Origin: Citrobacter phage phiNP
DNA length: 44,932 bases
Sequence record: OR565852
Strand: one strand, 5' to 3'
Within the stretch, counting starts at the first letter, position 1. Each line of letters opens with the position of its first letter. The position numbers were made by a program, and so were the translations under genes. The notes beneath the pieces were generated by a model. The model searched no databases and was not told where the DNA came from. It saw nothing but the letters and a program-made list of their open reading frames with translations. This document shows positions 5,533 to 42,112 of this stretch, in pieces.

Positions 5533-6113
5533 GTCACCTGCCCCGCGGTTTTCTCACTGGTAATACTGCTGCTGCCACCAGCGACGCCTTTCGTCACATG
5601 GTTGTGACCGTTATATGCGTCGCGTAACTCTTTCAGCGTGCGCGGGTTGCTCTCGCAGTTATCGACAACATCCCCGGTAACCAGCAGCTTCGGCGTGATC
5701 AGCTTTACCTGCTCTGTCGCTGTGACCGTCAGGTTTCTGGCGTTATTCACCGTCACATCCTGTCCGTTCGCCTCAACAGTGATCCCTTTCTCCGTCATCA
5801 GGATATAAAGCCCCCACTGGTTATAAAGGACCGTTTCTCCCGGGTTCAGCCCGGTATGTCGGTGCCCCTGATGGTTGGAGCCAATGATCACCGGGCTGGA
5901 GCGATCGCCCCCCAGGAAAGCCAGTACCACATCAGAGCCCGCAGGCAGCGCGGAAGAAAAGCCAAACTCCGTTATCCGGCGGGCCGTAGCCACCTCCAGC
6001 GGTGTCTGGTACTGCACGCTCTGAACTGTGCCGCCGTCGTTCTGACCCGTCACACGACCAATACCCAACATCCCGGCGACGCGGGTCGCCAGGTGTCTGA
6101 AAAGTTGATTCAT
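5529..6113 (-). CDS. Baseplate assembly protein V / central spike (Mu gp45-like)
   Basis: Gene order and an OB-fold-spike-like sequence. Confidence 0.75.
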   Translation of the reverse strand: MNQLFRHLATRVAGMLGIGRVTGQNDGGTVQSVQYQTPLEVATARRITEFGFSSALPAGSDVVLAFLGGDRSSPVIIGSNHQGHRHTGLNPGETVLYNQWGLYILMTEKGITVEANGQDVTVNNARNLTVTATEQVKLITPKLLVTGDVVDNCESNPRTLKELRDAYNGHNHVTKGVAGGSSSITSEKTAGQVT

Positions 6114-7189
6114 GGATTAAGCCCCGGTATCTGTTGGTAGAAAGCGTAAGGCTGGACGGTAAACGCCTCCGGTGGCATCAGGGACAGCCTGGCGTGCGTT
6201 CCGCCTGAATCCCTGATAAACGTCACCTCGGACAGCAACATTTCCCGATCGGTGACTTTCAGCGCCGGAATATTGACCGGGATCAGCGTATTGGGCTCCC
6301 ACAATTTCCCGGACTTATCCCGCCAGCTGTCAATCGTCACATCCAGTTGCCGGGAACGGCCGTAACGCCGGTTCATCTCCCAGTCGATACACTGCTGCGC
6401 CTGCTGTGACGCCATCAGCGTGCTCTCAACAATCACAATGCGTTTCCGGTAGCGCATTCTGGCCGCCTCCGGATCGCGTGCGGTCGCCAGGGTCACCGAA
6501 TCGTAGGCAGTATCCGGCGCCAGCCCGCTAACCGGGGACAGGCTCATGGATACCCCGACATAATCAGAAAACCGCTCAGCCATTGAGGTTCGGAAATATG
6601 CCTGCTCGATGTTTTCCCCCTGGGCGACACCACTGGCCGCCTTCCGGGTTCCCACCCTGGTCAGCAGCAGATTGCCGTCAGGCTGGTCGTAATACAGCAG
6701 CGCAGACCAGCGGCTGACACGTTCGATGATCTCCTGCGGGGATTCACCCCAGTTGAGTGTGAACTGGGGAACAGCAACCAGATCACTGACATCTGACGAT
6801 ACGGATATGCCGTAATACGAGGCCAGACGTGAAGCGATATCCAGCGCGTTGCCACCGTTAATCACGTTATTCGGCCACTCGGCGGAGCAGTCCACCAGGT
6901 CCTGGCACTTTCCGCGCCCCGTTGCTCTGACTTCATGGCGACTCCGGCTTATCGACGGCTCCCAGTCATCGACATAGCCGGTGATCACCAGGTCGTTACC
7001 GATCCGGATTTCGCAGGACTCCCCCTCCCTGACCAGCTGTTCATCCTGGCTACCGGGGAAATAGTCCATCAGCCCTAGGTCAAAATCAGACGGGAAACGC
7101 TCGATTGCCCGGGTGACCCGCACGGAATCCCAGCCCTCTATTCTTCTGCCTCCCACGGTGAGGGAAACGAGATCGCGGGTTTCAGTCAT
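6110..7189 (-). CDS. Baseplate hub / late control D-like protein (Mu gp44)
   Basis: Gene order; 359 aa, typical for gpD/P family members. Confidence 0.75.
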   Translation of the reverse strand: MTETRDLVSLTVGGRRIEGWDSVRVTRAIERFPSDFDLGLMDYFPGSQDEQLVREGESCEIRIGNDLVITGYVDDWEPSISRSRHEVRATGRGKCQDLVDCSAEWPNNVINGGNALDIASRLASYYGISVSSDVSDLVAVPQFTLNWGESPQEIIERVSRWSALLYYDQPDGNLLLTRVGTRKAASGVAQGENIEQAYFRTSMAERFSDYVGVSMSLSPVSGLAPDTAYDSVTLATARDPEAARMRYRKRIVIVESTLMASQQAQQCIDWEMNRRYGRSRQLDVTIDSWRDKSGKLWEPNTLIPVNIPALKVTDREMLLSEVTFIRDSGGTHARLSLMPPEAFTVQPYAFYQQIPGLNP

Positions 7190-8589
7190 TGCCGTAACAC
7201 CTTCATTTTCACAGGCATAAATGCCGGGTGGGGAACATCCGCTTCCTGCACCAGTTCATCAGCGCGCCCGGCATCCTGATACAACCGGTTTGCCAGCGTC
7301 AGCGCCGGAAGTGGCCGCGCGGTGCTGATCTCCATCAGCTCGCTCAGGTTCGGAGAAATATCGCTCATCCTGTCGATAAATGAGGATCGAAGACTGAGCA
7401 GCGCCCTGTAGAGATCATCATCGCCGCGGTCGCCCACCACCACCAGCGCTACATCCAGCTGATCGGATACCCGCTGCGTCAGTCCTTCGGCTTCGTCACG
7501 GCTGGTCGGATTGGACTCCGCCGCCGCCGCAGTCATCGCCCCGGAGCACAGCACAATGATCAGGGTGTTGACAGAGGCCGCGATTTTTCGCGTGGCCTCT
7601 GACTGCTGGTATTCGGTACTGGTGGCACCGGCCAGAGACTCCAGCAGCGTAACGCGCTCATCAATACCGCCGACGCTGTTCAGTATCAGGTTCACCAGAT
7701 CCGCCGTCAGCTGCATGATATCTTCGGGCGCCGTGGCGCTGTTGAGCCGTTCGACAGCATCTGAAATATTCTGGCGATCCATGACCGCCTGAGCCGTTAC
7801 CTGTTCGACCAGCGCCTGATAATCATCAGTGTCATCGGCCTGGTGAGTACCCGTTGCCCCGGAAGAACTCCCACCTGCCGTCCCTTTGTTGTAGCGTCCA
7901 TAGCGGGTATTCCCGAACGTGGAATTCAGGACGTTACTGACACTGGTCGCTTCGCTGATCGTGCTGTCTACCATCCGGGTCCAGAAGGCGACCGTTCCCC
8001 TGATGGTGTTGATCCCCTGAGTCACCCCCCGGAGTTCACTTTTGATCCGCGCCAGAACGCTGGAAACGGTGGTGGTAACCAGTTTCAGATAATTTGTCAC
8101 GACGTTCACACCGGCGACCTTGCTGCCGGTAATGGCGAACACCTTCAGACCTGATTCAATGGCTGTCAGGGTAAATTCGAACACCCGCCCGGCCTCCGCC
8201 GTTCCGGCAATTCTCAGGCCACCATCCGGAATGGCAACCGTCATTTCCCCCAGCGTCGGGTGTACCAGTGTCCCCGGCCCCTTTTCCTCACAGGCATTAA
8301 TCAGCGCCTGGCGCTGGGTAACGGCATCACCGCCACCGTAAACCTGGCTGTCCTCGACCAGAAAGCCCCTGATGGTTATCCGGCGAACACCCCGCCCCAG
8401 ATCTTCAATCCAGGCGGTATCCCGGTACGGGTATTCATGGACAGCCTGGCGACGTCCATGGACCCCTTCTTCAATCACGACGGCAAAAGGAACGCCCCGG
8501 AAGCTGGACGGCCGTAGCTTATCCTGCCAGCGCTCACCGCCTGTGCCGCCCATCAGAGCGGATATTGCATTCTGGATAATTGCCATCAT
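7186..8589 (-). CDS. DNA circulation protein (Mu gp43-like)
   Basis: N-terminal WQDKLRPSSFRGVPFAV...HEYPYRD motif typical of the DNA-circulation N-terminal domain. Confidence 0.75.
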   Translation of the reverse strand: MMAIIQNAISALMGGTGGERWQDKLRPSSFRGVPFAVVIEEGVHGRRQAVHEYPYRDTAWIEDLGRGVRRITIRGFLVEDSQVYGGGDAVTQRQALINACEEKGPGTLVHPTLGEMTVAIPDGGLRIAGTAEAGRVFEFTLTAIESGLKVFAITGSKVAGVNVVTNYLKLVTTTVSSVLARIKSELRGVTQGINTIRGTVAFWTRMVDSTISEATSVSNVLNSTFGNTRYGRYNKGTAGGSSSGATGTHQADDTDDYQALVEQVTAQAVMDRQNISDAVERLNSATAPEDIMQLTADLVNLILNSVGGIDERVTLLESLAGATSTEYQQSEATRKIAASVNTLIIVLCSGAMTAAAAESNPTSRDEAEGLTQRVSDQLDVALVVVGDRGDDDLYRALLSLRSSFIDRMSDISPNLSELMEISTARPLPALTLANRLYQDAGRADELVQEADVPHPAFMPVKMKVLRQ

Positions 8590-8622
8590 TACCCCATAAG
8601 TAAAAACCCGCCGGCTGGCGGG

Positions 8623-10536
8623 TCAGTAGAACATAGGCATGGAGATCCGGCCGCCATTACGGGTTTCAATGGTCTGCTTCTCGCCATTACTGCCGGTCAT
8701 GGTAATTTCCAGCCTGAGTTTCTGATCCTCAAACGCCGCTTTCATCGCGCTGGTCAGATTTTCCCGTTCAGATGCGCTGGTACCACTACGCGGCTGGATA
8801 ATGGAGGGCGTCGCCCTGCTGGTGTTACCGGCGGCAACAGGTGCAGGTGACGCTGGCGACTGGCTGGCTATCACCCCGGGAGCATCCACCGCCGGTTTTT
8901 CTGCCTCCCTCACCACCGGCGGTAGCACCGGTGCCGGAACCCGGGCAGGATTCTGGTTAGCCCCTTGCGCGATATTCCGGTAATGCGCCAGTACGGCGCC
9001 AGGATACGCCGCGTTTTCCCGCCCCCACCGGCTCCGATCATAACCGCCGTTGTAATACCGCAGCGCCAGCGCCACATTTCCCCGGGAGCGTTGCATGTTC
9101 TCCGCGAAAATCTGCGCCCCGGCCATGATGTTTTGCCGGGGATCGGTCCAGTCAGTGACGCCGGTATTGCGGAAGTTTGACGGCATGACCTGCATCAGCC
9201 CCCGGGCGCCCGCCCGACTGATAGCACGCGGATTACCGCCGGACTCCTGGGACATTATCGCCTTAAGGAGTGTCGGATCGACGTTATATTTATCACCGGC
9301 TTCATGGAGAAGGTCGTCATATCGCCCCGCCCGTTCATAGGTTGTTGAGCGGCGGGATACAGGACGCCTCTCTGCTGGCCTGCGTGGCGCAATACCCGTC
9401 AGATCCTCCTGCAGCTGTGCCGCCGCGTCAGTTGCACCATAGCGGGCATCGTAGCGCCTGCGCACGGCGTCAGTATAAAATCCGGCATCCACCGCCCCGC
9501 GCTCCATCCGGGACAGGCTGCCGTACAGGTCTTTATCTCCCTGAATACGTCGCAACTTTTTGGCATTATCGCTGCTGACAAAACCGAGCGCATGAGAGAG
9601 GCCAGTAAAATCGCCGTGAGAGAACAGATCCGTTATGCCCTCCAGTCCATCTTTTACCGAACCGTCGATTTTATTCAGGCTGCCCAGTAACATACCGGCG
9701 GACATTTTCTTTTTCAGACCGTCCCATGATGCGCTGACTTCATTCAGGGTGCCGTTCATATCCTTCAGCTGGTCATTCAGAGCCGGATCCATCGTCAGAC
9801 CAAACTGATCGGACTTCGCCAGCAACTCTTTCAGGCGGGCACCTTCGCGCAGCAGCTGCAGACCGTTAGCATCCAGCCCCAGCGCATCAGCGGCGGTCTT
9901 CTGGTTCTCCGGTGACAGAGAGGGAAATACCCGGGCGATAGATTCCAGGGTTTTCAACACATCCGCCGTACCGTCCTTGTTCCTGACAATCTGTGCGCCA
10001 ATCTGGGACATCGCCCCCAGGACCGCGCTGTTTTTTCCCCAGAGCGCATCATTGAAGGTTTTAAACATCCCTTCTACAGACGCGTTCGCGCTCTGACTGT
10101 CGCTACCGAGGATGCGCATAGCGCCTGAAAGGCGGGTAAACTCGTCCACCCGCATTCCGGCGTTTTTGGCTGACACATCGAGGTTATAAGCCTCCCGCGA
10201 CGCCTCCGCGAAACTCTCTGCGACCCGCTTCATGCCATACCCGACCGCACCGGCCAGGCCAACTGAAGCCAGCTTTCCGGACAGCTCCCCCACCATTTTC
10301 AGGGGAGGAACCATATCACCGACAAACTGGACGTTATCGCGGGCCGCCCGGGCCATGCTGTCCAGTCGTCCGGAAATATTATCCAGCCCGTCAGTAGTAT
10401 CCTGGCCACCCAGCGCAAGCTCATCCTGGGTGTTCTGCAGTAGCGGGAGAAGCTTACGCACGGCCCCATCTATCCGGGAGACAGCATCACTGACCTGATC
10501 ATCTGCCACCAGTTCAAAATCAAATGCATTACTCAT
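8623..10536 (-). CDS. Tape measure protein with C-terminal soluble lytic transglycosylase domain
   Basis: Long helical N-terminal part; SLT motif IMSQESGGNPRAISRAGARGLMQVMP...YNGG. Confidence 0.85.
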   Translation of the reverse strand: MSNAFDFELVADDQVSDAVSRIDGAVRKLLPLLQNTQDELALGGQDTTDGLDNISGRLDSMARAARDNVQFVGDMVPPLKMVGELSGKLASVGLAGAVGYGMKRVAESFAEASREAYNLDVSAKNAGMRVDEFTRLSGAMRILGSDSQSANASVEGMFKTFNDALWGKNSAVLGAMSQIGAQIVRNKDGTADVLKTLESIARVFPSLSPENQKTAADALGLDANGLQLLREGARLKELLAKSDQFGLTMDPALNDQLKDMNGTLNEVSASWDGLKKKMSAGMLLGSLNKIDGSVKDGLEGITDLFSHGDFTGLSHALGFVSSDNAKKLRRIQGDKDLYGSLSRMERGAVDAGFYTDAVRRRYDARYGATDAAAQLQEDLTGIAPRRPAERRPVSRRSTTYERAGRYDDLLHEAGDKYNVDPTLLKAIMSQESGGNPRAISRAGARGLMQVMPSNFRNTGVTDWTDPRQNIMAGAQIFAENMQRSRGNVALALRYYNGGYDRSRWGRENAAYPGAVLAHYRNIAQGANQNPARVPAPVLPPVVREAEKPAVDAPGVIASQSPASPAPVAAGNTSRATPSIIQPRSGTSASERENLTSAMKAAFEDQKLRLEITMTGSNGEKQTIETRNGGRISMPMFY

Positions 10537-21116: not shown

Positions 21117-21687
21117 TGCTCAACTCCTCCATAGCCTCATACACCACTTCCTGAAGCGCCTGGACGAATTCAGCATCGCTGACAGTCGGGGCCAGCACAC
21201 GCAGCCGGGGGCCATGTTCCGGGGCGATAGCCACCAGGCGGGTACGCATCCGGGAATATTCTTTCCTGACCTCAGAGATCATTTCTTCGAATGGCAACAG
21301 TGCGCCGGATTTTGTGTCATATTCCAGCTGCGTCAGCAGCGCCAGGTAGTTCTCCTTCATCTGACGGGCTTCATCCAGCGTCATTTCAGCACCACGGGCA
21401 ACCAGGATCCGCTCTGCCACTTTACTGGCCGACTCCGGTCGTTCCGGCGTCGCGGTGTTACCCTGGCTGTTACTCCTGGTGGTGTTACCCTTCCTGTTAC
21501 CCTGGCTGTTACCTTCCGCATTTTTTTTACCCGGGCGACTCACCGTTTTCCGGTAGCGTTCAATGTTCGCGTTGGACGCGTCCACATCGATATCTTCACC
21601 ATCCAGAACCAGCCAGCCCCGGGCTTTCCACTGGGTGACCGTCTTCCGGCTGACGCCGTGCAACCTGGCGAATTCTGACTGGTTCAT
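21082..21687 (-). CDS. Terminase small subunit with N-terminal wHTH (Nu1-like)
   Basis: MNQSEFARLHGVSRKTVTQWKARGWLV HTH; overlaps the terL start. Confidence 0.8.
   Translation of the reverse strand: MNQSEFARLHGVSRKTVTQWKARGWLVLDGEDIDVDASNANIERYRKTVSRPGKKNAEGNSQGNRKGNTTRSNSQGNTATPERPESASKVAERILVARGAEMTLDEARQMKENYLALLTQLEYDTKSGALLPFEEMISEVRKEYSRMRTRLVAIAPEHGPRLRVLAPTVSDAEFVQALQEVVYEAMEELSSDTDSRGGDQQ
21456..21513. repeat. Five same-orientation TGTTAC(C/T) motifs spaced 12-15 bp inside terS
   Basis: Copies start at 21456, 21468, 21483, 21495 and 21507. Confidence 0.8.
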
Positions 21688-21688
21688 G

Positions 21689-21714
21689 TGTTACCCCGGC
21701 TGTTACCTGTTACC
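21689..21714. repeat. Three TGTTACC motifs immediately upstream of the terS start codon (cosB-like candidates)
   Basis: Copies start at 21689, 21701 and 21708. Confidence 0.75.
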
Positions 21715-21857
21715 CAAATTTCAAAAGTTCATAGCTAGCCGAACATCGCGGCGCGCAATGCCCGTGTGATATCAGCCAGTTAGGAAGGACCCATTTTTTT
21801 CTGAGCCGTCCTCCCCGGGGGATATCGTCGATTTTCCCGATTTGAAAAATATGCGGA

Positions 21858-22499
21858 CTACTTCGCGGTGCGGAGAGCCTCCGCTATTGCCTGACTCAGT
21901 GCACCAGGTAGCAGCGCTTCCGCCATCTGGTTCGCTCTGTCCATGTATCCCAGTACTGGGCTGACAGGAAGCGCATCACCAAAGCGAATAAGGAGTTTCG
22001 GGGCTGGCTGCTTCATCCTGTCGCGGCGCATGCCGTTCGGAGAGCGTTTAGCCCGCTTTTTCCTCTTGCTCTTCTTTGGCTTCCTGCGCTGCCATACACC
22101 GTTAACACCGTTGACGTCACCGATGAAGGTATTCGGCTTTGCCTTTAGCTGGCTCATCTTGTTACGGGTCAGGTTGCCGTATTTGTTCAGCTTGATGTTC
22201 TTGGGGTTCAGCAGTGCTTTGCCGTTCAGCTTATGCTCTCCACCAAATTCGAAAGGCTCCAGGTATCCGGCTGCCGTATCGCGAACAAACACCCGGGCGC
22301 GCAGGTTGCTCTTTCTTGCCCCCACTGAGCCAACCGACTTAACGGTGAATGGTGTCGGATTATCCAGCCTGCGCTGGAATGCCGTCTTCTGCGCAGCCTC
22401 TATCTGTCGAACGACAGACGTCATAGCCTGGGCCGTGGCGAAAGGAATCTGCTTTTTTATCGCCTGCAGCTGGCGTGACAGGTCACGTAAATCAGCCAT
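21858..22499 (-). CDS. Hypothetical protein with a strongly basic C-terminal segment
   Basis: The start was moved to MADLRDL (22499) because of the RBS AAGGGG and the end of the upstream gene at 22510. Contains the tract RRKPKKSKRKKRAKR. Confidence 0.5.
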   Translation of the reverse strand: MADLRDLSRQLQAIKKQIPFATAQAMTSVVRQIEAAQKTAFQRRLDNPTPFTVKSVGSVGARKSNLRARVFVRDTAAGYLEPFEFGGEHKLNGKALLNPKNIKLNKYGNLTRNKMSQLKAKPNTFIGDVNGVNGVWQRRKPKKSKRKKRAKRSPNGMRRDRMKQPAPKLLIRFGDALPVSPVLGYMDRANQMAEALLPGALSQAIAEALRTAK

Positions 22500-22509
22500 T
22501 GGACACCCC

Positions 22510-23175
22510 TTATAGTGCTGGTACCCATGGTAAATTACTGGTCCACGGTTTCGGGTTTCCATGAAAGCAGACTATTCGTGCATCGGGCGGCAACGTTCCA
22601 TTGCCTTCAGACCTTAATGAGTGCCATCCTGGCATTCCGGCGCACGCGATGTGCTGCTTATAGCTGACTATCTGGCCGGGATACTCGTTCTGCCAGATAA
22701 TCCGGGGCTGAAACACATCATCGAGAAAACCCTGGTCACCCCATTTCTTCCCAGGCTGCGTACACTCCTGCATGATGCGCACCGGCGCTTCCATGAACTG
22801 TTCCCATATCGACGCTTTATTTCCATGCGGTATTCGCATCACGGCAGATCCCACCGTTGAGGGATGATAGAAATCAGCCAGAATTCCCATGCGCTGCTCT
22901 GCCAGCAATTCCGTAATATCACCGGTAATAACCGTATCGAGATCAAGAAAGAAGATGTCGCTATCACACTGAGCCGGATCGAACAATTCGATCTTGCTCC
23001 ACCAGCCCGGCCAGCTCTGCTTCAGGGGAATAGTACGAACTCCCCGGATAGCCCTGTCGGAGAAGCACACAAAGTCATATCCACCAGGTAGCTGCCGTTT
23101 CAGCCATTTCACATGCTCTGGTGCATATGCGCCACCGCTGCGTAAAACCGTTGCGATTACGGGCTTATCTCTCAT
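22510..23175 (-). CDS. Nucleotide-sugar (DxD) glycosyltransferase-like protein
   Basis: IFFLDLDTVI (DxD), WGDQGFL and CFHGNPKPW motifs resemble GT-A-fold transferases. The assignment is by eye only. Confidence 0.45.
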   Translation of the reverse strand: MRDKPVIATVLRSGGAYAPEHVKWLKRQLPGGYDFVCFSDRAIRGVRTIPLKQSWPGWWSKIELFDPAQCDSDIFFLDLDTVITGDITELLAEQRMGILADFYHPSTVGSAVMRIPHGNKASIWEQFMEAPVRIMQECTQPGKKWGDQGFLDDVFQPRIIWQNEYPGQIVSYKQHIACAGMPGWHSLRSEGNGTLPPDARIVCFHGNPKPWTSNLPWVPAL

Positions 23176-23785
23176 CAGTCATATCCATCCATTCGGCAAG
23201 TGTCATTTGAGGTACGGAAGCTAGCTTTCCCAGAGAAACCACATTAATCTGAGGCCGGGCTGACGCGAAAAGTAACGGCAAATGAGACAAGTCTCGGCAC
23301 CAGCCGCCCTCCACACGCTCTTCGTCAGTCGCATCAACCCCCACCAGAGCTACATCGATAAATCCCAGGTGGTACGCCAGACCCAGCGCGCCGTAGGCAC
23401 TGTTACCAGAATGAATTTCGCCAGGGCTATTGCTCAGGCCGGGAGTACACGACCAGCGCCATAACCACCAGCCAGGTGATCCAACCGTTGCCGGTTCAGC
23501 GCCACGCGATGAGATTCGCCTCATCCTGATAACATGCGGCGGTAGCCCGATATCATCCGGAACAGCCGCCACATAGCAGATGTTCGGGCGCGGATTAGCC
23601 AGCCGGCTCATATTTTCCGGACTGGGATCCAGCGTGAAAAAATAATCGGTGCTCGGTAGCCAGTCGATAGCTCCATTCACCGCAATAATTGTCACCCCGT
23701 CCGGTGGACTGAACTCCGCCGCACTGGGACCGGATGCGACGATAATCGCTCTATTGCTGTTTCCAGCCTTTCGCGTTGAAAGCAT
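23165..23785 (-). CDS. DUF115 / MptE-Maf-like protein, paralogue B
   Basis: AIIVASGPS, IIAVNGAIDW and ALVGVDAT motifs, shared with the upstream paralogue. Confidence 0.45.
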   Translation of the reverse strand: MLSTRKAGNSNRAIIVASGPSAAEFSPPDGVTIIAVNGAIDWLPSTDYFFTLDPSPENMSRLANPRPNICYVAAVPDDIGLPPHVIRMRRISSRGAEPATVGSPGWWLWRWSCTPGLSNSPGEIHSGNSAYGALGLAYHLGFIDVALVGVDATDEERVEGGWCRDLSHLPLLFASARPQINVVSLGKLASVPQMTLAEWMDMTDER

Positions 23786-24294
23786 TTCAGAGAGGTATCC
23801 CGTGAACAGTTAACAATTTCCACCCCAGAGCAGGCCGCGGCCAGGCGGGAAAATTCACCCTGCCAGGCGATAACGCTTTCATGTGTCGGGTTTCGTAGTC
23901 GTCCGGCGGCATGGGCCCCATGCCAGTGAATCCCGCGCTTCAGTGAGCAGTCATAGCCCAACAGCAGAATCCGGCTGGCGCCCAGGGTGGCGGCTAACTC
24001 AATGGCTCGCTGCCCTGAGTTAAACGATCCCGGTATTGCTGTTTGCAGGTAGCTAATGCCGAAATGAATGGCGGTGTAACGGCTGCCACACCAGCGCGCC
24101 GCCGTTACAGGAATTTTGCTGGCGTGCTCCCGCCACCATGCAAAATCAGCCGCATAGATTGCCGAGCAGAACGGCGCCACACGCCATGAATCATTAACGG
24201 CAATAATGGGGATTTCAGCCTCATAGAGCAGCTGACAATCGGCAAGCGTCAGGGATGGCCCCGACGCTGCACAAGCGATGACGGAGTTTTTCAC
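23692..24294 (-). CDS. DUF115 / MptE-Maf-like protein, paralogue A
   Basis: VIACAASGPS, IIAVNDSW and LLLGYDCS motifs. Its 3' end overlaps paralogue B by 94 nt. Confidence 0.45.
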   Translation of the reverse strand: MKNSVIACAASGPSLTLADCQLLYEAEIPIIAVNDSWRVAPFCSAIYAADFAWWREHASKIPVTAARWCGSRYTAIHFGISYLQTAIPGSFNSGQRAIELAATLGASRILLLGYDCSLKRGIHWHGAHAAGRLRNPTHESVIAWQGEFSRLAAACSGVEIVNCSRDTSLKCFQRERLETAIERLSSHPVPVRRSSVHRTG

Positions 24295-24604
24295 TGTGTA
24301 TCCAAAATATATTCCGGGGAAAGTTGAAACTGGATGCTATCTGAAACAGATCGTTTATGCTGAGTTACCCCGGAAATAAGCCGGGTATTCAGAAGAAAAT
24401 AAAAAGCACTGTCGACGAGCCTCCGAAGAAGCCCGCCTGCACTGCCCGTTATGGTGTTACTCCAGATTATCCCTGGTTATCATAAGGGTTCAGCCCGCCC
24501 ATGCCGACACATGGGCGCACACAGCAACAAGGGGGATGGCTGCTGTAATGCCCTGTTCGCTGGGCCAGCGTCGGTTGCCACCCGATCTACGGCAGTGAAT
24601 TCAT

Positions 24605-24802
24605 TTAGCCCAGCTTTGCACGCACCAGCGCATCTTTCGCTTCAAGAAGTTTACGCAAACCAGCCGACTTCTCCGGGCCATTCGGCAGCATTGCATCCAT
24701 CAGCTTAGCCAGATCACCGATAGGCTTACTGACTTCCTGTAAATGCGGAGGTAAGTGCTCATACTCAAAATACTTAATGATCGGCGTGATGATAGTTGCC
24801 AT
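24605..24802 (-). CDS. Small hypothetical protein downstream of the spanins
   Basis: Start taken at MATIITP (24802), preceded by RBS AGAGG. Confidence 0.5.
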   Translation of the reverse strand: MATIITPIIKYFEYEHLPPHLQEVSKPIGDLAKLMDAMLPNGPEKSAGLRKLLEAKDALVRAKLG

Positions 24803-25328
24803 CGATAACCTCTGTTTGATTGTTGGATGCTCTAACTGAGTCATAAATACGTTCACACGTCATTCCAGCGCGGTAGCTTTTGTCAGATCGTCCAGCATAG
24901 TATTTAGCTTCATCTGCAAGGCGTCCGAGCATGTCGGCGAGCATCGCGGCGTTGGCGCTGGCTGTTTTGCTTCGGACGGTAGCGGCAAGATCTGCGGTGT
25001 GCTTTGCGGCGTCCAGGCGGGTGGCAAGTTTTTTAGCTTGTTGCTGCAGCTGGCTAACAGTGGCAGACAAACCAGCAGCAGTGGCAGCAGCTTTTGCGGC
25101 TTGCGTTTGTGCATCTTTCACGGCCTCATCACGGGCAATAATGCGCCCTTGCTCAATCATTCGGGCAGCAGTCTGCGCGTTAGCAGCCTGTGAGGACTCT
25201 GCGCTGTCACGATCCGCCCATTTTATTCGCCAGGCCCGGTCGCGCCAGCTATCTCCCGTAACAAACGCAATGACCACCAGCAGTATGATCGCCAGAGGCT
25301 TCCAGAATGTCTTCAGCAGAGAGAACAT
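24774..25328 (-). CDS. Rz: i-spanin (Rz-like)
   Basis: N-terminal TMD (KPLAIILLVVIAFV), an Ala/Gln-rich coiled coil, and a position after the endolysin. Confidence 0.75.
   Translation of the reverse strand: MFSLLKTFWKPLAIILLVVIAFVTGDSWRDRAWRIKWADRDSAESSQAANAQTAARMIEQGRIIARDEAVKDAQTQAAKAAATAAGLSATVSQLQQQAKKLATRLDAAKHTADLAATVRSKTASANAAMLADMLGRLADEAKYYAGRSDKSYRAGMTCERIYDSVRASNNQTEVIDGNYHHADH
24860..25114 (-). CDS. Rz1: o-spanin lipoprotein (Rz1-like) embedded out of frame in Rz
   Basis: Lipobox LLASC after a signal peptide; proline-rich mature part; fully nested in the Rz gene. Confidence 0.7.
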   Translation of the reverse strand: MHKRKPQKLLPLLLVCLPLLASCSNKLKNLPPAWTPQSTPQILPLPSEAKQPAPTPRCSPTCSDALQMKLNTMLDDLTKATALE

Positions 25329-25331
25329 CTG

Positions 25332-25739
25332 TCACCCCGCCAGATCGATAGCCTTAACGAAAACATCAAATCTGTATGGCTGGTCCCCGTTCTCATGCTG
25401 AATGATGGCCTGCAACAGCTTCATCATGAATCGGCTGTCGCTGGTATCAATACGCTGGTCGGGATCAACGCCCGTCGCTTTCGCTACGCTGTTGATATAG
25501 GACTGCGTGTCGTTCTCATTGGTCGGTGCCCAGCGGTTTATGATCCCGCTGATGGTGCTGAGCCCATGTTTACGCTGGTAGTTGCGCAAAATGATGATCA
25601 TCGCCCGAATGCCATACTCCGCCGATTTGAACTGACAGAATGATTTATCAGTGCGCTGAGTTTCTGGCACCAGCCCCTTCCACTCGTCACCCCAGCGAAT
25701 ATTGCCGGGGTTGTTATTGCGGATCCCGCGTGCTGTCAT
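25332..25739 (-). CDS. Endolysin candidate (GIRNNNPGNIR-motif family)
   Basis: Located between the holin and Rz, with an ATGA overlap with the holin gene. The catalytic class could not be determined by eye. Confidence 0.6.
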   Translation of the reverse strand: MTARGIRNNNPGNIRWGDEWKGLVPETQRTDKSFCQFKSAEYGIRAMIIILRNYQRKHGLSTISGIINRWAPTNENDTQSYINSVAKATGVDPDQRIDTSDSRFMMKLLQAIIQHENGDQPYRFDVFVKAIDLAG

Positions 25740-26068
25740 TTATTGCTCTCCCTTGTGTTGATGCCGGCTCTCCTGGAGACAACAGCCAGCGCCATATCGC
25801 GGAGGCGATCAGCACCAACGAAGCCCACCAGCGCACCCACAAACGCGCCGGAATTAGCAGGGAGGCCGAAGTATTCAAGTAATGCTGAAATGGCCAGGGC
25901 GAAAATACCGCAGATCAGCGCTCCCGTTGCCGTGTACAGCTTCGGCTTTCCTGCCCTGATGTCGATCAGCGCTGAAATGCCCAGGGCGCACAGACCTGCG
26001 TATACCGAAGGGAGGTACATCGCGATCCATTTCATAGTTTGCTCAAAAATCCCGTTTGCATGGTTCAT
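25736..26068 (-). CDS. Holin (three predicted TMDs)
   Basis: Three hydrophobic segments plus a charged C-terminus; first gene of the lysis cassette. Confidence 0.7.
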   Translation of the reverse strand: MNHANGIFEQTMKWIAMYLPSVYAGLCALGISALIDIRAGKPKLYTATGALICGIFALAISALLEYFGLPANSGAFVGALVGFVGADRLRDMALAVVSRRAGINTRESNK

Positions 26069-26245
26069 GAATCCACCTCCGAAGTGATGTTCGAGGTGCT
26101 GTGTTGGGGGAAATTCAGGCTTCAGGGTGGTGGCGCTACATGGCTATATAGAGGATGAAACCCTGAGCCTGAAAGAGATGACCACCACAGCATGACAAAC
26201 GTGGTGAGCCGATTGATGACGCTTTCGGCTCATTGAGTGAGCCGT

Positions 26246-27298
26246 TTATTTTTCTGGTAACGCTCTGATTTCTTCAACGGTCTGGTTAAACCGCTCTGTT
26301 TCCAGCTCGACGCCAATAGCCTTACGGCCTAAATCGATCGCCGCTTTTAACGTGGAACCGGAGCCCATGAAGAAATCAGCTACCACATCCCCGGGTCTGC
26401 TGCTCGCGCTGATGATTTGCTTCAGCATGTCAGCAGGCTTTTCGCAGGGATGTTTGCCGGGATAAAACTGGACGGGTTTATGCGTCCATACGTCGGTATA
26501 TGGCACGGCCACCGACACGGCAAAATACCGCCGAAGGGATTTGTACTCCTCCAGCAGTTCGGAATATTTACGGTTCAGTGACTGGTATGTTGCCACCAGT
26601 TGGTGATGAGGCTGCGCCAGTTCGGCACGCTGATGCTTCTCGATAGCGATCCGGGTGAAAAGCTCCTGCAATTTGAGGTAATCCGCTTCACCCGGCAGCT
26701 GCCACTGGCTGGAACCAAACCAGTGCGAAACCATGTTCTTCTTACCAGTGGCCTCGGTGATTTGTTTCGAGGTAACGCCAAGGGATTCCCGGGCATTCTG
26801 AAAATAGGTAATAAGCGGTGTCAGCACATGCTGTTTGAGTTCACCACATTTTGCCGCGTAACCATCGTCTTTGGGCTTGCATGGCCCCTGATAGTGTTCA
26901 GCAAACAGAACACGCTCAGTGGCCGGGAAATACGCGCGCAGACTTTCTTTATTGCAGCCATTCCAGCGACCGCTCGGTTTAGCCCAAATGATGTGGTTCA
27001 GGATGCTGAAGCGGTCGCGCATTAAGATTTCAATATCTGCAGCCAGCCGGTGGCCGCAAAACAGGTAAAGGCTACCGGCGGGTTTCAACACTCGCCAGAA
27101 TTCAGCCAGGCAGCGATCGAGCCAGCGAAGATAGTCTTCATCCCCTTTCCACTGGTTATCCCATCCGTTTGGCTTCACCTTGAAGTAAGGCGGATCGGTA
27201 ACAATCAGGTCGATGGAGTTATCAGGAAGGGTGGCGATGTAATGCAGGCAGTCAGCGTTGATTAACTCAACACTGTTTATTTTTACAGTATTTTTCAT
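26246..27298 (-). CDS. DNA methyltransferase, beta-class N6A/N4C (N6_N4_Mtase-like)
   Basis: DPPYF (motif IV) lies N-terminal to FMGSGST (motif I). First gene of the late operon. Confidence 0.85.
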   Translation of the reverse strand: MKNTVKINSVELINADCLHYIATLPDNSIDLIVTDPPYFKVKPNGWDNQWKGDEDYLRWLDRCLAEFWRVLKPAGSLYLFCGHRLAADIEILMRDRFSILNHIIWAKPSGRWNGCNKESLRAYFPATERVLFAEHYQGPCKPKDDGYAAKCGELKQHVLTPLITYFQNARESLGVTSKQITEATGKKNMVSHWFGSSQWQLPGEADYLKLQELFTRIAIEKHQRAELAQPHHQLVATYQSLNRKYSELLEEYKSLRRYFAVSVAVPYTDVWTHKPVQFYPGKHPCEKPADMLKQIISASSRPGDVVADFFMGSGSTLKAAIDLGRKAIGVELETERFNQTVEEIRALPEK

Positions 27299-27837: not shown

Positions 27838-28533
27838 TCACATTTCCAGCGCATTAGCCACTTCCAGCCCTTCGCGCCTGATGAGGATCGTTTGCAGCGC
27901 CTGAGTGTCAAGCTCGACGAATGCCGCTTTAAATCTCGCCCAGTGCGATGCATACACACGTAACCAGGTTGAACGATCCACAGACATCATTCGCGCCAGC
28001 GCCGCACCGGCGTATTCTTTATATGTGTCATTGCTTCTGGCCGCAGCCACCTCCTGCGCTGCCAGCCAGACAAGACCGACCAGTTTTTTCACTACCCGTG
28101 ATTGCAGCTTCTTCTCTACCCTGCAATTCTGAAACTCATTCCATACATGCTGGCACATCAGCGTCTGGTACCTGAAGTTCAGATCGAAACCGTAGCAGTA
28201 ACGGATCCATGCCTGCTGGTAGTCATCCAGTGAATTGATTACCCGGCGCCACGGCGCGTAACTAAATTCCAGATCCTGCATTGGCGGGAACGGTCGCCGC
28301 CGGCTTCTCGTTTCCAGCACATAAACAGGCGTGGTTAATGCCTTCACAAGCGAGTGTCCACAGCCTTCCCCGCCCTCCAGTTCGATAAGAGGCTGCCCGC
28401 AGCGGGGCGTTTTATTTTTGTCTGCCGGTGGATGTTCGCTAAACGCCTGCAGTTGCCCCTTTGTCCCTTCAGATAAATTCGCCAGGGCGCGCTTTACTTC
28501 TATACGGGTATATTCAATGGCCTGTAAGTTCAT
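27838..28533 (-). CDS. Q: Late antiterminator Q
   Basis: Q-family-like sequence (..QQAWIRYCYG..) and the canonical position upstream of PR' and the lysis genes. Confidence 0.75.
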   Translation of the reverse strand: MNLQAIEYTRIEVKRALANLSEGTKGQLQAFSEHPPADKNKTPRCGQPLIELEGGEGCGHSLVKALTTPVYVLETRSRRRPFPPMQDLEFSYAPWRRVINSLDDYQQAWIRYCYGFDLNFRYQTLMCQHVWNEFQNCRVEKKLQSRVVKKLVGLVWLAAQEVAAARSNDTYKEYAGAALARMMSVDRSTWLRVYASHWARFKAAFVELDTQALQTILIRREGLEVANALEM

Positions 28534-28554: not shown

Positions 28555-29622
28555 TTACGCTTTAACAATTACGCCGATCGCCAGCGCCCGATCCAGAAAA
28601 CGAAACAGCAGTTCCAGCTGTGTGCCATATTTCTGCTCGAACGCCGCTACATCGGCATGCAATTTGTCGTGGCACTCTCTGCACAGAGGGAACACGAACA
28701 GGTCATGGGCTTTGGTAGCAGTGCCACCCATCCCATGACCGATAACATGATGCGGATCGTCTGCCGGACGGCGACAACACTCGCAGGGCTGACTTTTAAC
28801 CCAGCGCGTATACTTCTCATTCTCCCAGCGGCGGCGCTTAGGCCGTAACATGAACGACTCCGGTGATTCAGGATCTGCGCTCAATGCAATAACCCTTGGC
28901 TGCTGCTCCTGCATTACCTGCTGATTTTCCTGTGGCCTGCACCTTTTTAACGATCCAGCCGTTTTTATCCTCCTCTGCAGGGCGACGGTTGGTCGGTTAT
29001 CTGCGGCAATAATGTCGCTTTCTTTATATACAGATGGGAACGGTTCATAGGGCATCTGCATCACTCTGGCTGCCAGTTCTTCCGGAATGGCATCTGCCAC
29101 ACCGACATAAATAGCCCACCAGCACAGCTCAGCGATCGACAATTCCCGCTCGCGATTAAACCGAAGGCCGACCAGCACGGTATCAATGATCCAGTCAATA
29201 ACGTTACGGCGCGCTATACCAGCCAACAGATCGGTTGACTGCTCACGAAGTTTGTTATCGCAGTGCCAGCAAAGCATCATCGCGCCCGGGGCGTGTCGCA
29301 TGGTCACCAGCTCATGATGGTGATAATCCGAGTGCGGGTACTGACATTCACCGATATTCCGCTCAAGCCAGTGATCCAGCCCGGAGAGACTACCCGCAGC
29401 ACGGATCACCCTCTCATCAGTGAAGAATGGGATCAGCGCTTCATCCTCCGCCAGCGGCTGCCGGGCATCAGGAACACGGCCGGTTGACAGCCTGGCCATG
29501 TTCTCCGGTTCGGACTCCACCAGCACGCGCCCCGCGGAGAAAAGGCGCATTAACTCTTTGCCCGGTTTGAGCAGTACCACGCCAAGACGTGGCACAACTT
29601 CAGGGGTTAACAGCGCTCTCAT
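28555..29622 (-). CDS. DUF968 / Ref-like HNH nuclease-domain protein
   Basis: C-terminal CECCRRPADDPHHV...PLCRECHDKLH HNH/zinc motif, as in P1 Ref/DUF968. The start at 29622 gives an ATGA overlap with the C5 MTase stop. Confidence 0.7.
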   Translation of the reverse strand: MRALLTPEVVPRLGVVLLKPGKELMRLFSAGRVLVESEPENMARLSTGRVPDARQPLAEDEALIPFFTDERVIRAAGSLSGLDHWLERNIGECQYPHSDYHHHELVTMRHAPGAMMLCWHCDNKLREQSTDLLAGIARRNVIDWIIDTVLVGLRFNRERELSIAELCWWAIYVGVADAIPEELAARVMQMPYEPFPSVYKESDIIAADNRPTVALQRRIKTAGSLKRCRPQENQQVMQEQQPRVIALSADPESPESFMLRPKRRRWENEKYTRWVKSQPCECCRRPADDPHHVIGHGMGGTATKAHDLFVFPLCRECHDKLHADVAAFEQKYGTQLELLFRFLDRALAIGVIVKA

Positions 29623-31346
29623 GCAACCTCCCGCTGCTGGTTGCATAACTCGGGCAGGTTGGCTTCTACCAGCGCACGGGCAAACGGGGGCGGAACGGCG
29701 TTACCGCAGCGCGCTACCTGCTTGTCTTTTGCATAGCGCTGGCCGCGATAATCACGATCGATAATGTAACCTTCAGGAAAGCCCTGGGCCTTATACAACT
29801 CATGAGGCTGCAACATGCGCATGCCAATATCGACGATCTGGTAGTCGGCACCATCAACCGTTACCAGGCCGAAGCGATCATTGGTTGTGACGGTTCCCAG
29901 CGGTTCATCCAGCGATACGCCGCTTTTTTCATTTCCGTAGTACTTCATCAGGAAGGCGCGAACCTCTCCGATATGCAGACCGCCGGCGGTCACCGTAGGC
30001 ATGGGCTGATCCACTTTTCGACCGTCTTTGCAGGTACCGCGCAGATGAACCAGGTGTGAGGTCACAACAGCATGGTGATCAGTGGTCGTAACGGTATGCG
30101 CAGGTGCATCCATAGCGGCACCCGGCCCCGTATAATTACCGCCGAAGTGTTTCGCCAGAAAGGTGGTCACCAGCTGCGACTTTCCACCACCGCCAGCGGT
30201 TACTGTTCCATTGGGTTCATCAGCGCCGTGTCCGGTACTGTTACCAAACTGGCGGGCTATCATTGGCGCCACCAGGCAGGCGCGGGACTCTTTTAACACG
30301 GTGTGGGCCGGTTTATTTATCGCCCGCGGCTTCGCCTGATATTCGCTACCACCATTACCGGCGATAAACGGGGTAACGACAGCGTATCCATGGGTTTTGG
30401 TAATAGTCTGCAGCGGACTATCAATGCCCTGCCCACGAAAGCAGTCATATGCCGTGCGGCTGCTGGTGTGATTACACTTCACAATAAACGGTGTCGGGTT
30501 GTTCAGCACAAACCGCTCAATACCACGCGCAATGCGCTTCAGCGTATTTTCCGCCAGCAGCTTTGGGCGCTCAAAAATGCTCTGGCAGGGGATTGACCAG
30601 TCGATACACTCCGCCGCGGTACGCCATGGCGCCAGCCTGCCGCTCTGAACTTCCAGCGATTTAGGATCGCCATGTGTTGGCTCTGGCCAGTGAATTTCCT
30701 CACCATCACAGCGCATGACCATGAAGAATCGCTTGCGGATCGTCGGCGCGCCGAAATCGCAGGCTCGCAGTTCGCGATAATCGATGCCGTAGCCCAGCCC
30801 GTTAATAAGGCGCTGCGCCTGCTCGCTGCCTTTAGGTACAGACAGGAACTCGCACACCTCAGACAGGGCGGGATGATCCGCAGGTATGCCGGTGGATAGC
30901 ATGCCAACAAACGCCGCGAAGGTTTCGCCCGCGCGGGATGGATCCGGGCGCATTTCGTCTGCCAGCAGCGGCCCCCACGTTTTGAACTCCTCCACGTTCT
31001 CCAGCATCATGACACGCGGGCGCTTCGCCAGCGCCCAGCGTACTACTACCCACGCCAGACCGCGAATCTCTTTTTTTACCGGCTTAGCACCCTTCGCCTT
31101 TGAGAAGTGGCGGCAATCAGGGCTAAACCAGGCCAGGCCGACCGGATTACCACCAGTGGCCGCCAGCGGATCAACGTCAAACACGGACTCGCAGTAATGC
31201 AGGGTATCGGGGTGGTTAGTTTTGTGCATAGCGATCGCGTTTTCATCGTGGTTGATGGCAATATCCACGCTGCGCCCGATCGCCAGCTCGATCCCGGTAC
31301 TCGCGCCGCCGCCACCAGCAAAGTTATCAACGATAATTTCACGCAT
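29619..31346 (-). CDS. DNA (cytosine-5) methyltransferase, unusually long (575 aa)
   Basis: Motif I DNFAGGGG, motif IV SPDCRHFS, motif VI ENVEEF, motif VIII PTIRKRFF, motif IX MLQPHELYKAQGFP and motif X GNAVPPP. Start taken at MREIIV (31346). Confidence 0.9.
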   Translation of the reverse strand: MREIIVDNFAGGGGASTGIELAIGRSVDIAINHDENAIAMHKTNHPDTLHYCESVFDVDPLAATGGNPVGLAWFSPDCRHFSKAKGAKPVKKEIRGLAWVVVRWALAKRPRVMMLENVEEFKTWGPLLADEMRPDPSRAGETFAAFVGMLSTGIPADHPALSEVCEFLSVPKGSEQAQRLINGLGYGIDYRELRACDFGAPTIRKRFFMVMRCDGEEIHWPEPTHGDPKSLEVQSGRLAPWRTAAECIDWSIPCQSIFERPKLLAENTLKRIARGIERFVLNNPTPFIVKCNHTSSRTAYDCFRGQGIDSPLQTITKTHGYAVVTPFIAGNGGSEYQAKPRAINKPAHTVLKESRACLVAPMIARQFGNSTGHGADEPNGTVTAGGGGKSQLVTTFLAKHFGGNYTGPGAAMDAPAHTVTTTDHHAVVTSHLVHLRGTCKDGRKVDQPMPTVTAGGLHIGEVRAFLMKYYGNEKSGVSLDEPLGTVTTNDRFGLVTVDGADYQIVDIGMRMLQPHELYKAQGFPEGYIIDRDYRGQRYAKDKQVARCGNAVPPPFARALVEANLPELCNQQREVA

Positions 31347-32220
31347 TGACGGCTCCCTGCATGCTGTAGACCAGACCACCAGCCACGGTGATTATTTCGC
31401 TGGTGGGCATACGCTCAAGCCAGAGCTGATTGATGTTCGCCTTCAGCTTGTTCTGCTGGGCCAACTCCAGAGAATCCGCTCCCTCAACCTGATTGAATAC
31501 CAGGCCAACCTCCAGCGGCCAGATACGCGACTCCACTTCTGGCTGTCCCAAGCCAGCAGGCATAACGTCTTCCACCGGGGCTGGCGGCACCACTTTTTCC
31601 GCGGCAAATTGGGCCAGCGACATAAATGCCCGCCCCTTAGCCTCTAGATCACTGCGATGAATGTAGCTGAAACGCTCGCCCCGCCATGTCTTATCGAATA
31701 CCACTATGGCGCCAGCGAAAAATGCGCTGGTAGGCTGCTGTTTCTCGTCTGCCGGGATAAACCATGCAGGCAGGTCGAAGCCAATGCGGCCACGGATGAA
31801 AACAATATGATCAGCATCTTCAGGCCACCATGTTTCACTAGGTGCCGCTTTGATGAGGAACACATAGCGACCGCCCTTCTCACGCATGGCAGAGGCATAG
31901 CTCATGATATGACTCATGCCGGTGATCGCCTGCTTACCGTCGTATTGCGATCGGCTATAGGGCGGATTGCCGAACGCGGCGCCACCGATGGCGATCAGCA
32001 TTTCCGACCAATCCTGTGTCAGAGCGTTATCTTCGGCGGTGTACCAGACCGGGCATTTGGCGTTACTGTCGTCGGCGAACAAATCCAGCATCAGCGGCCC
32101 AAACATCGCATTGATGCCCCAGAACAACAGTTCCGGCGTGCGCCACTGATCGCCAACTTCTTTTAACTCGTGGACTGGCTTGCTACGTAGTTCAGCCAGC
32201 GCCAGGCAGTATTTATTCAT
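31339..32220 (-). CDS. Phage Dam-type N6-adenine DNA methyltransferase (WRTP...NPPY family) with a C-terminal extension
   Basis: DQWRTPELLF, DLFA and GNPPYS motifs. Confidence 0.8.
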   Translation of the reverse strand: MNKYCLALAELRSKPVHELKEVGDQWRTPELLFWGINAMFGPLMLDLFADDSNAKCPVWYTAEDNALTQDWSEMLIAIGGAAFGNPPYSRSQYDGKQAITGMSHIMSYASAMREKGGRYVFLIKAAPSETWWPEDADHIVFIRGRIGFDLPAWFIPADEKQQPTSAFFAGAIVVFDKTWRGERFSYIHRSDLEAKGRAFMSLAQFAAEKVVPPAPVEDVMPAGLGQPEVESRIWPLEVGLVFNQVEGADSLELAQQNKLKANINQLWLERMPTSEIITVAGGLVYSMQGAVNA

Positions 32221-38867: not shown

Positions 38868-39190
38868 ACGAACAAACTACAGTTAAACACCTCCATTTCT
38901 ACGGTGCCAGCGATGATCTGCTGGAATGCGAAGGCGCGATCCGCGAGGAGATTGGTTGCTATAACTCTCCAGGCATCTATCACCTCAAATCCGCCGAGGG
39001 TGAAATGCAGGTTGTCGGTTATTACCTCGACTCCGGGCTGTGGAGCATCGGAATCAGCCAGGTCGCCGAAGATACGCCGCTGCCAGCGTGGCCCGTCACT
39101 TACGCCATGCATGAGCGTGGTTACAGTGTCCAGCTCACCATCACTGTGCCGGACGACGCCATTCTGGTTTTGTCAGAGGAAGATGAATGA
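38864..39190 (+). CDS. Hypothetical protein
   Basis: Translationally coupled on both sides. Confidence 0.55.
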   Translation: MNEQTTVKHLHFYGASDDLLECEGAIREEIGCYNSPGIYHLKSAEGEMQVVGYYLDSGLWSIGISQVAEDTPLPAWPVTYAMHERGYSVQLTITVPDDAILVLSEEDE

Positions 39191-39918
39191 GCATTACCCT
39201 GCATAACGCCGACTGCTTCGATGTTTTTCCGACGATTGCCAGCGGTTCCGTAGACATGGTGTGTGCGGATATTCCCTACGGTACCACGCAGTGCTGCTGG
39301 GATTCGGTGCTTGACCTCGAGGTGATGTGGCATGAACTGTACCGCATCGCCAAGCCGTCAGCGGCAATTGTCCTGTTTTCGGCTCAACCGTTTACCGCGG
39401 TGCTGGTCGGCAGCAACCTGGCGGACTGGCGATCCGAGTGGATTTGGGAAAAAGGCAACGCCACCGGCTTCCTTAATGCCAAAAAACAGCCGTTGCGTGC
39501 CCATGAAAATATAGAGGTGTTTTATCGTCGCCAGCCGACATACAACCCGCAGTTTACCCATGGTCATGCGCGCAGAACATCGAAGCGCAAAACCGTCAAT
39601 TCGGAGTGCTACGGCAAAGCGCTGACGCTGACTAAGTATGACTCAACCAGCCGGTACCCGCGCGATGTGCAGTTTTTCTCGAGTGACAAGCAAACCGGTA
39701 ATTTCCATCCCACCCAGAAGCCGCTGGCGCTGGTTCAGTACCTGATCGAGACCTACAGCAACCCCGGCGATACGGTGCTGGATTTCACAATGGGAAGCGG
39801 TACCGCAGGAGTCGCCTGCCTGCGTGTCGGGCGCTGCTTTATTGGCATTGAGAAAGACACCTCAATATTTCAGGTCGCGCGTCATCGTATAGGGACTAAG
39901 CAGGAGCATGCAGCATGA
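39187..39918 (+). CDS. DNA methyltransferase, beta-class N6A/N4C with DIPY catalytic motif
   Basis: ADIPYG (motif IV), HPTQKP and FTMGSGT (motif I). Confidence 0.85.
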   Translation: MSITLHNADCFDVFPTIASGSVDMVCADIPYGTTQCCWDSVLDLEVMWHELYRIAKPSAAIVLFSAQPFTAVLVGSNLADWRSEWIWEKGNATGFLNAKKQPLRAHENIEVFYRRQPTYNPQFTHGHARRTSKRKTVNSECYGKALTLTKYDSTSRYPRDVQFFSSDKQTGNFHPTQKPLALVQYLIETYSNPGDTVLDFTMGSGTAGVACLRVGRCFIGIEKDTSIFQVARHRIGTKQEHAA

Positions 39919-42055: not shown

Positions 42056-42112
42056 TCCATGTCTGAATTATTGGCCGCAATTTGTGGCCATTTCATGGAA
42101 CAAGGTACAAAC

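Follow-up and report, generated by a model that had tools for sequence, protein, structure and literature searches.

The genome of Citrobacter phage phiNP (sequence record OR565852), of which a stretch of 44,932 nucleotides (nt) was analysed and is referred to as the window, encodes three adjacent genes at positions 22510 to 24294, called A, B and C here. Reading the open reading frames (ORFs) of the window bears out the three minus-strand genes that an initial annotation, made from the DNA alone, had placed there. As judged by the encoded proteins, the trio corresponds to pmgO-pmgP-(ppp)-pmgQ of phage P1 and to hdmB-hdmC-ppp-hdmD of phage P7. We tentatively propose that it constitutes a cassette for cytoplasmic glycosylation carried by the phage, of the PmgO/PmgP/PmgQ type known from P1, by which the lipopolysaccharide (LPS) core might be remodelled with 3-deoxy-D-manno-octulosonate (Kdo) and a hexose. 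The genes and their junctions are the following:

23692-24294, minus strand: gene A, 200 amino acids (aa), GTG start; PmgO-type single-domain DUF115 enzyme with a predicted Maf/Cst/WaaZ-like fold, putative ulosonic-acid (Kdo) transferase
23165-23785, minus strand: gene B, 206 aa; PmgP-type single-domain DUF115 enzyme, distant homologue of A
22510-23175, minus strand: gene C, 221 aa; PmgQ-type, predicted divergent GT8-like GT-A glycosyltransferase
23692-23785, minus strand: overlap of A and B, 94 nt, with B in the -1 frame relative to A
23165-23175, minus strand: overlap of B and C, 11 nt, ATGAGAGATAA, a close junction that would suit translational coupling

With C as the query, tblastn finds PmgQ of P1 and HdmD of P7, and the proteins A, B and C are 41, 57, and 43% identical to PmgO, PmgP and PmgQ, with BLASTP E-values of 4e-46, 4e-76, and 5e-55, respectively. 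A megablast search with the locus in collections of phage and of E. coli genomes gave no match, and the kinship with P1 is visible at the protein level only. In the P1 record pmgO (annotated as "alpha-2,3-sialyltransferase"), pmgP, ppp and pmgQ are consecutive, and the pmg row is served by the late promoter LPpmgL and by C1-controlled operators. The view that no enterobacterial phage counterpart was known can therefore not be kept, the counterparts in P1 being uncharacterised and, as was shown by CRISPR interference, non-essential (PMC10695390). In a P1 proteome study, five out of 29 knockouts of single genes showed a defect (pmgA, pmgB, pmgC, pmgG, pmgR), the remaining ones had no plaque or anti-restriction phenotype, and among the previously uncharacterised P1 proteins PmgC and PmgG only are reported as virion-associated (PMC9024508). 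A P1-like element (L010, 5493-6040) carries A broken into two overlapping ORFs (5493-5849 and 5693-6040), which is probably a frameshift mutation or a pseudogene. All three proteins match PHROG families (A: 4603, E 7e-55; B: 2111, E 2e-95; C: 1962, E 2e-95). No NCBIfam or PADLOC model matches any of the three, showing that the trio is not a catalogued defence system.

The relation between A and B is a distant one. Pairwise BLASTP gives a marginal match (E 0.03 across 33 residues), whereas the comparison of the two family profiles by hhalign results in a probability of 97.7% and an E-value of 2e-12 over 167 columns, with the SGPS, (I)AVN and G-x-D motifs in register. Judged by these profiles, A and B are distant homologues and not close paralogues. 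The motif pairs quoted for them in the initial annotation (VIACAASGPS/AIIVASGPS and others) are present and align in the profile-profile comparison; its wording "clear paralogues" does not hold, as the homology shows with family profiles only. Both proteins match the Pfam family PF01973 (MptE-like/DUF115) with 23.5 bits (A) and 20.2 bits (B), under the gathering threshold of 34.6, and for many of their homologues a PF01973 match is precomputed. AlphaFold2 models of A and B are confident, with predicted local distance difference test scores of 88.8 and 93.8, and Maf is the closest structural match of both. In these models, A and B share the fold of Maf, MptE and Cst, in line with the DUF115 (MptE/Maf)-like fold suggested earlier, and each consists of the central DUF115 domain alone. 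PDB sequence-profile searches with A and B gave chance-level matches only, a search of a viral structure library returned only uncharacterised DUF115-like phage proteins, and nothing relevant was found in the literature on DUF115 in phages. The family alignments contain invariant histidines after the G-x-D strand, namely H123, H125 and H128 in A and H168 in B, B being the most conserved member of the trio. The isoelectric points (A 9.0, B 5.1, C 6.6) do not separate membrane-associated from soluble action by charge.

Moreover, both families are related to WaaZ. Against a WaaZ profile made of two sequences only (E. coli K-12 and a Raoultella homologue), the B family reaches a probability of 95.7% and an E-value of 9.8e-9 in hhalign, and the A family a weaker 71% and 3.6e-5. 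WaaZ itself (in the loci L109, 7001-9811, and L113, 3346-4197) has a weak Pfam MptE-like match and, on the basis of its sequence, appears to belong to the DUF115 sialyltransferase-like superfamily.

The length of the overlap between A and B had raised the suspicion of a hidden frameshift. In this region the C-terminal tail of A, which is unconserved, is read over the N-terminus of B, which is conserved and comprises strand 1 together with the SGPS motif; what is conserved of A stops at the helix "...CFPR..LE..L", and a later stop codon produces the additional unconserved tail. Overlaps of 4, 8, 11, 40, 43, 49, 94, 100, 103 or 133 nt are found across independent lineages, the one of pmgO and pmgP in P1 measuring 103 nt. 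By eye, the overlap shows no slippery heptamer of the form X XXY YYZ, and no protein of A-B length was found among the top 120 matches for each protein. One natural A-B fusion exists (P0361), so a fusion is tolerated. A frameshift or a sequencing error at this position was considered and rejected, as the overlaps recur in the lineages and frameshifting is unnecessary. In the public C. rodentium annotation, B has 176 aa (P0121, 85% coverage). This form drops strand 1 and the SGPS motif, both conserved and confidently modelled, which argues that the 206-aa B and its overlap with A are real; homologues align from residue 1 of the 206-aa protein. The 176-aa form probably stems from a wrongly annotated start site, chosen so that the overlap is avoided, and the public entry, in which the 5' end is missing, should be corrected.

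For the third gene, the assignment as a DxD-containing GT-A enzyme was right and can be sharpened to GT8-like. Searched against the PDB, the C family profile matches the GT8 enzyme Gat1 (6mw5, E 1.9e-5), glycogenin (E 4e-3) and then a Streptococcus GT8. The motifs of C are D78-x-D80, G146-D-Q148, and H205-G-x-P-x-P-W, of which D78, D80, G146, D147, Q148, H205, G206, P208 and P210 are invariant in the family and aligned to Gat1 and glycogenin. C scores 11 bits (E 0.31) against Pfam PF01501 (GT8) and does not reach the gathering threshold of 24.3; one out of 40 C-family members matches Pfam GT8 at an E-value of 0.01 or better, and the family has no Pfam or NCBIfam model. By these profile comparisons, C is classified as a divergent GT8-like GT-A enzyme forming a separate family. 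In the lambdoid phage Chlobot, C by itself adjoins integrase and tail-fibre genes, the usual position of lysogenic-conversion genes. The corresponding "C alone" clade (L002, phage Chlobot 5998-6717; P0291, P0310, P0326, P0342, P0348) occurs in lambdoid prophages beside integrase and tail-fibre genes and has a basic C-terminal tail (e.g., ...LYGKVKNLKLKVKG), absent from C of the trio type; the tail may be amphipathic and might act as a membrane anchor.

The three genes travel together. A, B and C are all present in 80 viral loci and also in the majority of 18 genome loci, some of them rearranged or on both strands, and a profile search of 1.84 billion representative proteins yielded 623 B-family clusters at 50% identity. 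Among these clusters are natural fusions: A-B (P0361), B-C (P0371, P0438), C-B (P0450), and C-B-S-adenosylmethionine (SAM) methyltransferase (P0422). Methyltransferase-B was found as well (the fusion set includes P0460, P0479, P0489, and P0506), and three more proteins fuse B to a second, divergent DUF115-like domain. The conserved co-occurrence and the natural fusions tie the three genes to one pathway. Accessory genes encode the Ppp phosphatase in P1-like phages, a SAM methyltransferase in seven loci and an extra PF03407-like glycosyltransferase in five loci; together with co-occurrence and fusions, they fit a stepwise glycan assembly. Genes for nucleotide-sugar synthesis were looked for in the neighbourhoods and none was found beside the module; as none travels with it, the donors must be common host metabolites. 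Every host that was identified is Gram-negative.

Relatives of the trio are also encoded outside of phages. A C homologue of 213 aa, 49% identical, lies directly upstream of waaL in a waa cluster of Raoultella/Klebsiella, where a gene of the WaaZ family is present as well, and an Erwinia C homologue is paired with a Wzy_C/WaaL-like gene. In a neighbour-joining tree calculated without bootstrap, the cellular waa-cluster clade of C is nested among phage sequences. On a Pseudescherichia chromosome assembled from a metagenome (L108, 2236-18532), and also in L090-L096, homologues of A, B and C lie in a non-phage island, which in L108 contains an inverse autotransporter of 1169 aa (IAT_beta/Big_1/Invasin_D3) and no fewer than four further Big_1 proteins. 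In three siphophage contigs (L086-L088, ~6570-9196) the genes are ordered as capsid, a 115-aa ORF, a shortened A without the SGPS end, connector, head-closure protein, B, C and a gp10-like protein. Here, A is either split or decayed, or its N-terminus is supplied by the 115-aa ORF.

In the window, which is a C. rodentium prophage and whose protein A is 100% identical to a C. rodentium protein, the trio is part of the Q-dependent late operon between the lysis and the terminase genes. The surrounding features are, in the order of the minus strand:

27838-28533, minus strand: antiterminator Q, the first in this order
26246-27298, minus strand: N6/N4 DNA methylase, after Q and before holin, endolysin, and Rz/Rz1
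24605-24856, minus strand: 83-aa ORF between Rz/Rz1 and the gap upstream of A
24295-24604, minus strand: non-coding stretch of 310 nt directly upstream of A
21858-22562, minus strand: gene 3' of C (longest ORF, 234 aa), PHROG minor tail/Neck1-like match from residue 22

For the last of these, the PHROG match beginning at residue 22 and a strong AAGGGG Shine-Dalgarno sequence preceding an ATG indicate that the true length is probably 213 aa with the start at 22499. A neck- or tail-like gene 5' of TerS is unusual for a lambda-type head module. It is followed by TerS, TerL, a lambda-type portal, an S49 protease, a gpD-like decoration protein, a gpE-like capsid protein and a myovirus tail. The initial annotation had located the trio between the spanins and the terminase region and had it expressed together with the virion genes. 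Expression with the virion genes agrees with the placement in the late operon, and the position between lysis and terminase genes is correct as well; the spanins and the terminase are not the direct neighbours, since the 83-aa ORF, the 310-nt gap and the 213-aa gene intervene. The gap contains a weak sigma-70-like -35/-10 match (24507-24479) and, after it, a hairpin of 7 bp that is closed by a UUCG tetraloop (GGGCUUC-UUCG-GAGGCUC) and leads into a T-rich run (~24436-24395), in promoter and terminator scans whose number of matches was no higher than in shuffled sequence. A search of Rfam with positions 21500-26300 matched no RNA family. The gap might be a regulatory element or a moron-type promoter, allowing expression without the late promoter.

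Established here are the folds of A and B, the families to which the three proteins belong, the homology of A and B to each other and to WaaZ, the correspondence with P1, the co-occurrence and fusions and the waa context of the nearest cellular homologue of C. On these we build a scheme that infers the donors of Kdo and of the hexose, the sequence of the steps, LPS as the acceptor and a benefit to the phage. A and B, as diverged single-domain DUF115 enzymes of the sialyl/Kdo-transferase fold, would probably work as a pair and transfer the eight-carbon acidic sugar Kdo from the cytidine monophosphate (CMP)-Kdo of the host. C, as a retaining GT-A enzyme similar to GT8, would attach a hexose taken from a uridine diphosphate (UDP)-sugar, and the product would be a short Kdo/hexose branch. 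The favoured acceptor is newly forming lipid A-core on the inner side of the cytoplasmic membrane. To our knowledge, the single-domain members of the DUF115-type fold with known roles (Cst-I/II, WaaZ, WabI) act on cores of LPS or lipooligosaccharide. During lytic growth, the LPS core would be rewritten by the phage, which might mask core receptors or block the O-antigen attachment site, similar to over-expressed WaaZ. The transfer of the third Kdo of the LPS core is ascribed to WaaZ, raised levels of which truncate the outer core (PMC6358824). Moreover, it was shown that Maf enzymes expressed in E. coli accept CMP-Kdo and place Kdo on Ser/Thr residues (PMC11339370). Host-derived donors, Gram-negative hosts, this use of CMP-Kdo by Maf and the homology to WaaZ suggest CMP-Kdo as the most plausible donor for A and/or B.

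Regarding the acceptor, the genomic contexts disagree, as the relatives in waa clusters favour the LPS core and the capsid, neck and adhesin neighbours favour a protein. Remodelling of the LPS core is ranked first, as a tentative choice, and O-glycosylation of proteins second, as its somewhat less likely main rival. The latter would apply the same Kdo/hexose chemistry to virion head or neck proteins, or to invasin-type adhesins in the chromosomal copies, paralleling the action of Maf on flagellin and that of relatives of LPS heptosyltransferases that glycosylate autotransporters. Several observations weigh against the LPS core or count for a protein. In most phages, as in the window, the cassette belongs to a late or structural operon, and in several unrelated phages (L007/L084, L009, L015, L097) it directly follows the HK97-type major capsid gene; in the Pseudomonas representative (L084) the head operon is so tightly packed that there is no space for a promoter of its own. 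In L086-L088 neck genes are interspersed with it, and its position is between genes for head closure and for tail completion. In the Pseudescherichia chromosomes, the trio lies within an island of intimin/invasin-type Big_1 adhesins, suggesting a protein acceptor, and in L108 A is on the same strand as the IAT_beta/Big_1/Invasin_D3 inverse autotransporter, 69 nt downstream of it. The structural and PDB leads likewise point to proteins: Maf, for which the attachment of Kdo to Ser/Thr was shown, tops the lists of A and B, and Gat1, glycogenin and the Streptococcus GT8, the best PDB matches of C, act on proteins or protein-linked glycans. The P1 module contains a gene for a Ser/Thr protein phosphatase. 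Furthermore, late expression can alter newly made LPS only, the P1 operon under C1 operators is silent in lysogens and thus has no classical lysogenic-conversion function, and P1 pmg knockouts are without a plaque phenotype (PMC9024508; PMC10695390). These normal plaques also count against a glycosylated virion, and glycosylation is unmentioned in the P1 virion proteome paper (PMC9024508). Moreover, B is 57-74% identical across phages with unrelated virion proteins, which favours a conserved host acceptor, and the closest cellular homologues of C are LPS-core genes. That minimal Maf-like phage enzymes, including those of P1, use CMP-Kdo together with a GT8-like enzyme to O-glycosylate virion head/neck or other proteins with a Kdo-hexose glycan is still more doubtful.

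Two readings depart from glycan transfer onto LPS or proteins. A and/or B might be MptE/thiamine-pyrophosphokinase-like enzymes, which would transfer a pyrophosphoryl group to a small molecule or a sugar, and C would then use the product. MptE-like is the sole Pfam model matched, and the phosphatase genes ppp and pap are found in or near the P1 module; however, Maf is the top structural match for A and B, the homology to WaaZ is significant, the fusion and joint occurrence with a GT8-like transferase, the PF03407-like glycosyltransferase and the sugar-type SAM methyltransferase suit glycan assembly, and pterin or thiamine pathway genes are not nearby, so that this explanation is improbable. 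Even less probable, to the point of being remote, is DNA hypermodification, in which the trio would glycosylate modified bases of the phage DNA alongside the methyltransferases of the prophage. In its favour stand the methylases of the window, namely a C5-cytosine enzyme of 586 aa, a Dam-like one, two of the N6/N4 type and one of the D12 class, and a contig of lytic type (L085) that has the trio among genes for endonuclease VII, ThyX, NT5C, Dam and ribonucleotide reductase. However, the known phage GT-A enzymes that glycosylate DNA are JGT-like, carry R...DDD...EDY/F motifs and are linked to 5-methylcytosine oxidases or hydroxymethylases, whereas the motif set of C differs and is GT8-like. No such oxidase or hydroxymethylase was found among ~35 window proteins in a scan that was not exhaustive, and DUF115 enzymes are without known DNA activity. 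P1 carries the same module, and we know of no hypermodification of P1 DNA. The five DNA methyltransferase genes within 45 kb (26246-27298, 29619-31379, 31339-32220, 39187-39918, and 43926-44807) form an observation in their own right, as does the unusual length of the C5-cytosine methylase. The D12-class methylase gene, which lies beyond the integrase and adjoins that of an AAA ATPase (42059-43846), may be part of an adjacent defence island. As a summary, the observations of the initial annotation stand with corrections and its interpretation is partly supported: among the roles it had offered, host surface modification and glycosylation of virion proteins remain the leading ones, and DNA hypermodification is the weakest.

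The links to WaaZ and to C relatives in waa clusters convert an "unknown" cassette into a concrete hypothesis that is cheap to test, and the cassette is widespread among phages with numerous Gram-negative hosts. If the LPS core is the acceptor, this would represent a phage-encoded cytoplasmic rewriting of the receptor layer during lytic growth, with a bearing on superinfection, on the adsorption of progeny to debris and on host ranges in phage therapy. If a protein is the acceptor, virions would be glycosylated with an LPS sugar, which would matter for the immune recognition of phages and might provide small enzymes for glyco-engineering; for phages of Gram-negative bacteria, a virion carrying Kdo-hexose would represent the first such glycosylation system, and it would contain natural protein-attached Kdo.

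Among the known systems, the P1 cassette is the closest, sharing all three proteins, the gene order A-B-C, the long A/B overlap (103 versus 94 nt) and lytic or late expression. The window differs from it in having no ppp phosphatase gene between B and C and no pmgL/M/N upstream. In P1, pmgO, pmgP and pmgQ are labelled merely with a "putative morphogenetic function", a label under which the cassette has stayed unexplained for two decades. With WaaZ and WabI, A and B share the xGPS, IAVNG and G..A.....LG...V.L.G.D.T motifs in addition to the hhalign homology to WaaZ; however, WaaZ has 283-305 aa with insertions, is chromosomal, lies in the waa operon and is only ~20% identical to A and B, whose genes are phage-borne and not located in a waa cluster. 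The Maf flagellin transferases (PDB 5mu5) have ~630 aa and three domains and are encoded in flagellar glycosylation islands, whereas A and B, with 200 and 206 aa, correspond to the central domain only and lie in a phage late operon without flagellar context. To Campylobacter Cst-I/Cst-II (CAZy GT42), the PDB profile searches with A and B gave no sequence-level match. The GT8 enzymes of the glycogenin, Gat1 and WaaJ/WaaO type resemble C in the DxD, GDQG and H-x-x-G-x-x-KPW-type motifs, which align with the C family, and differ in that C is short (~215 aa), belongs to a separate family and does not reach the Pfam GT8 threshold. Seroconversion cassettes (GtrABC, Oac) and the virion glycosylation of mycobacteriophages are similar in being phage-encoded sugar modifications of the host surface or the virion. 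Acting on the O-antigen in the periplasm, Gtr and Oac are membrane proteins that lysogens express, and mycobacteriophage virion glycosylation depends on unrelated glycosyltransferases; A, B and C, in contrast, are soluble, cytoplasmic and lytic-phase proteins. Based on these comparisons, the locus is best described as a further member of the uncharacterised P1 PmgO/PmgP/PmgQ cassette and as a putative phage variant of the core glycosylation chemistry that combines a Kdo transferase with a GT8-type enzyme.

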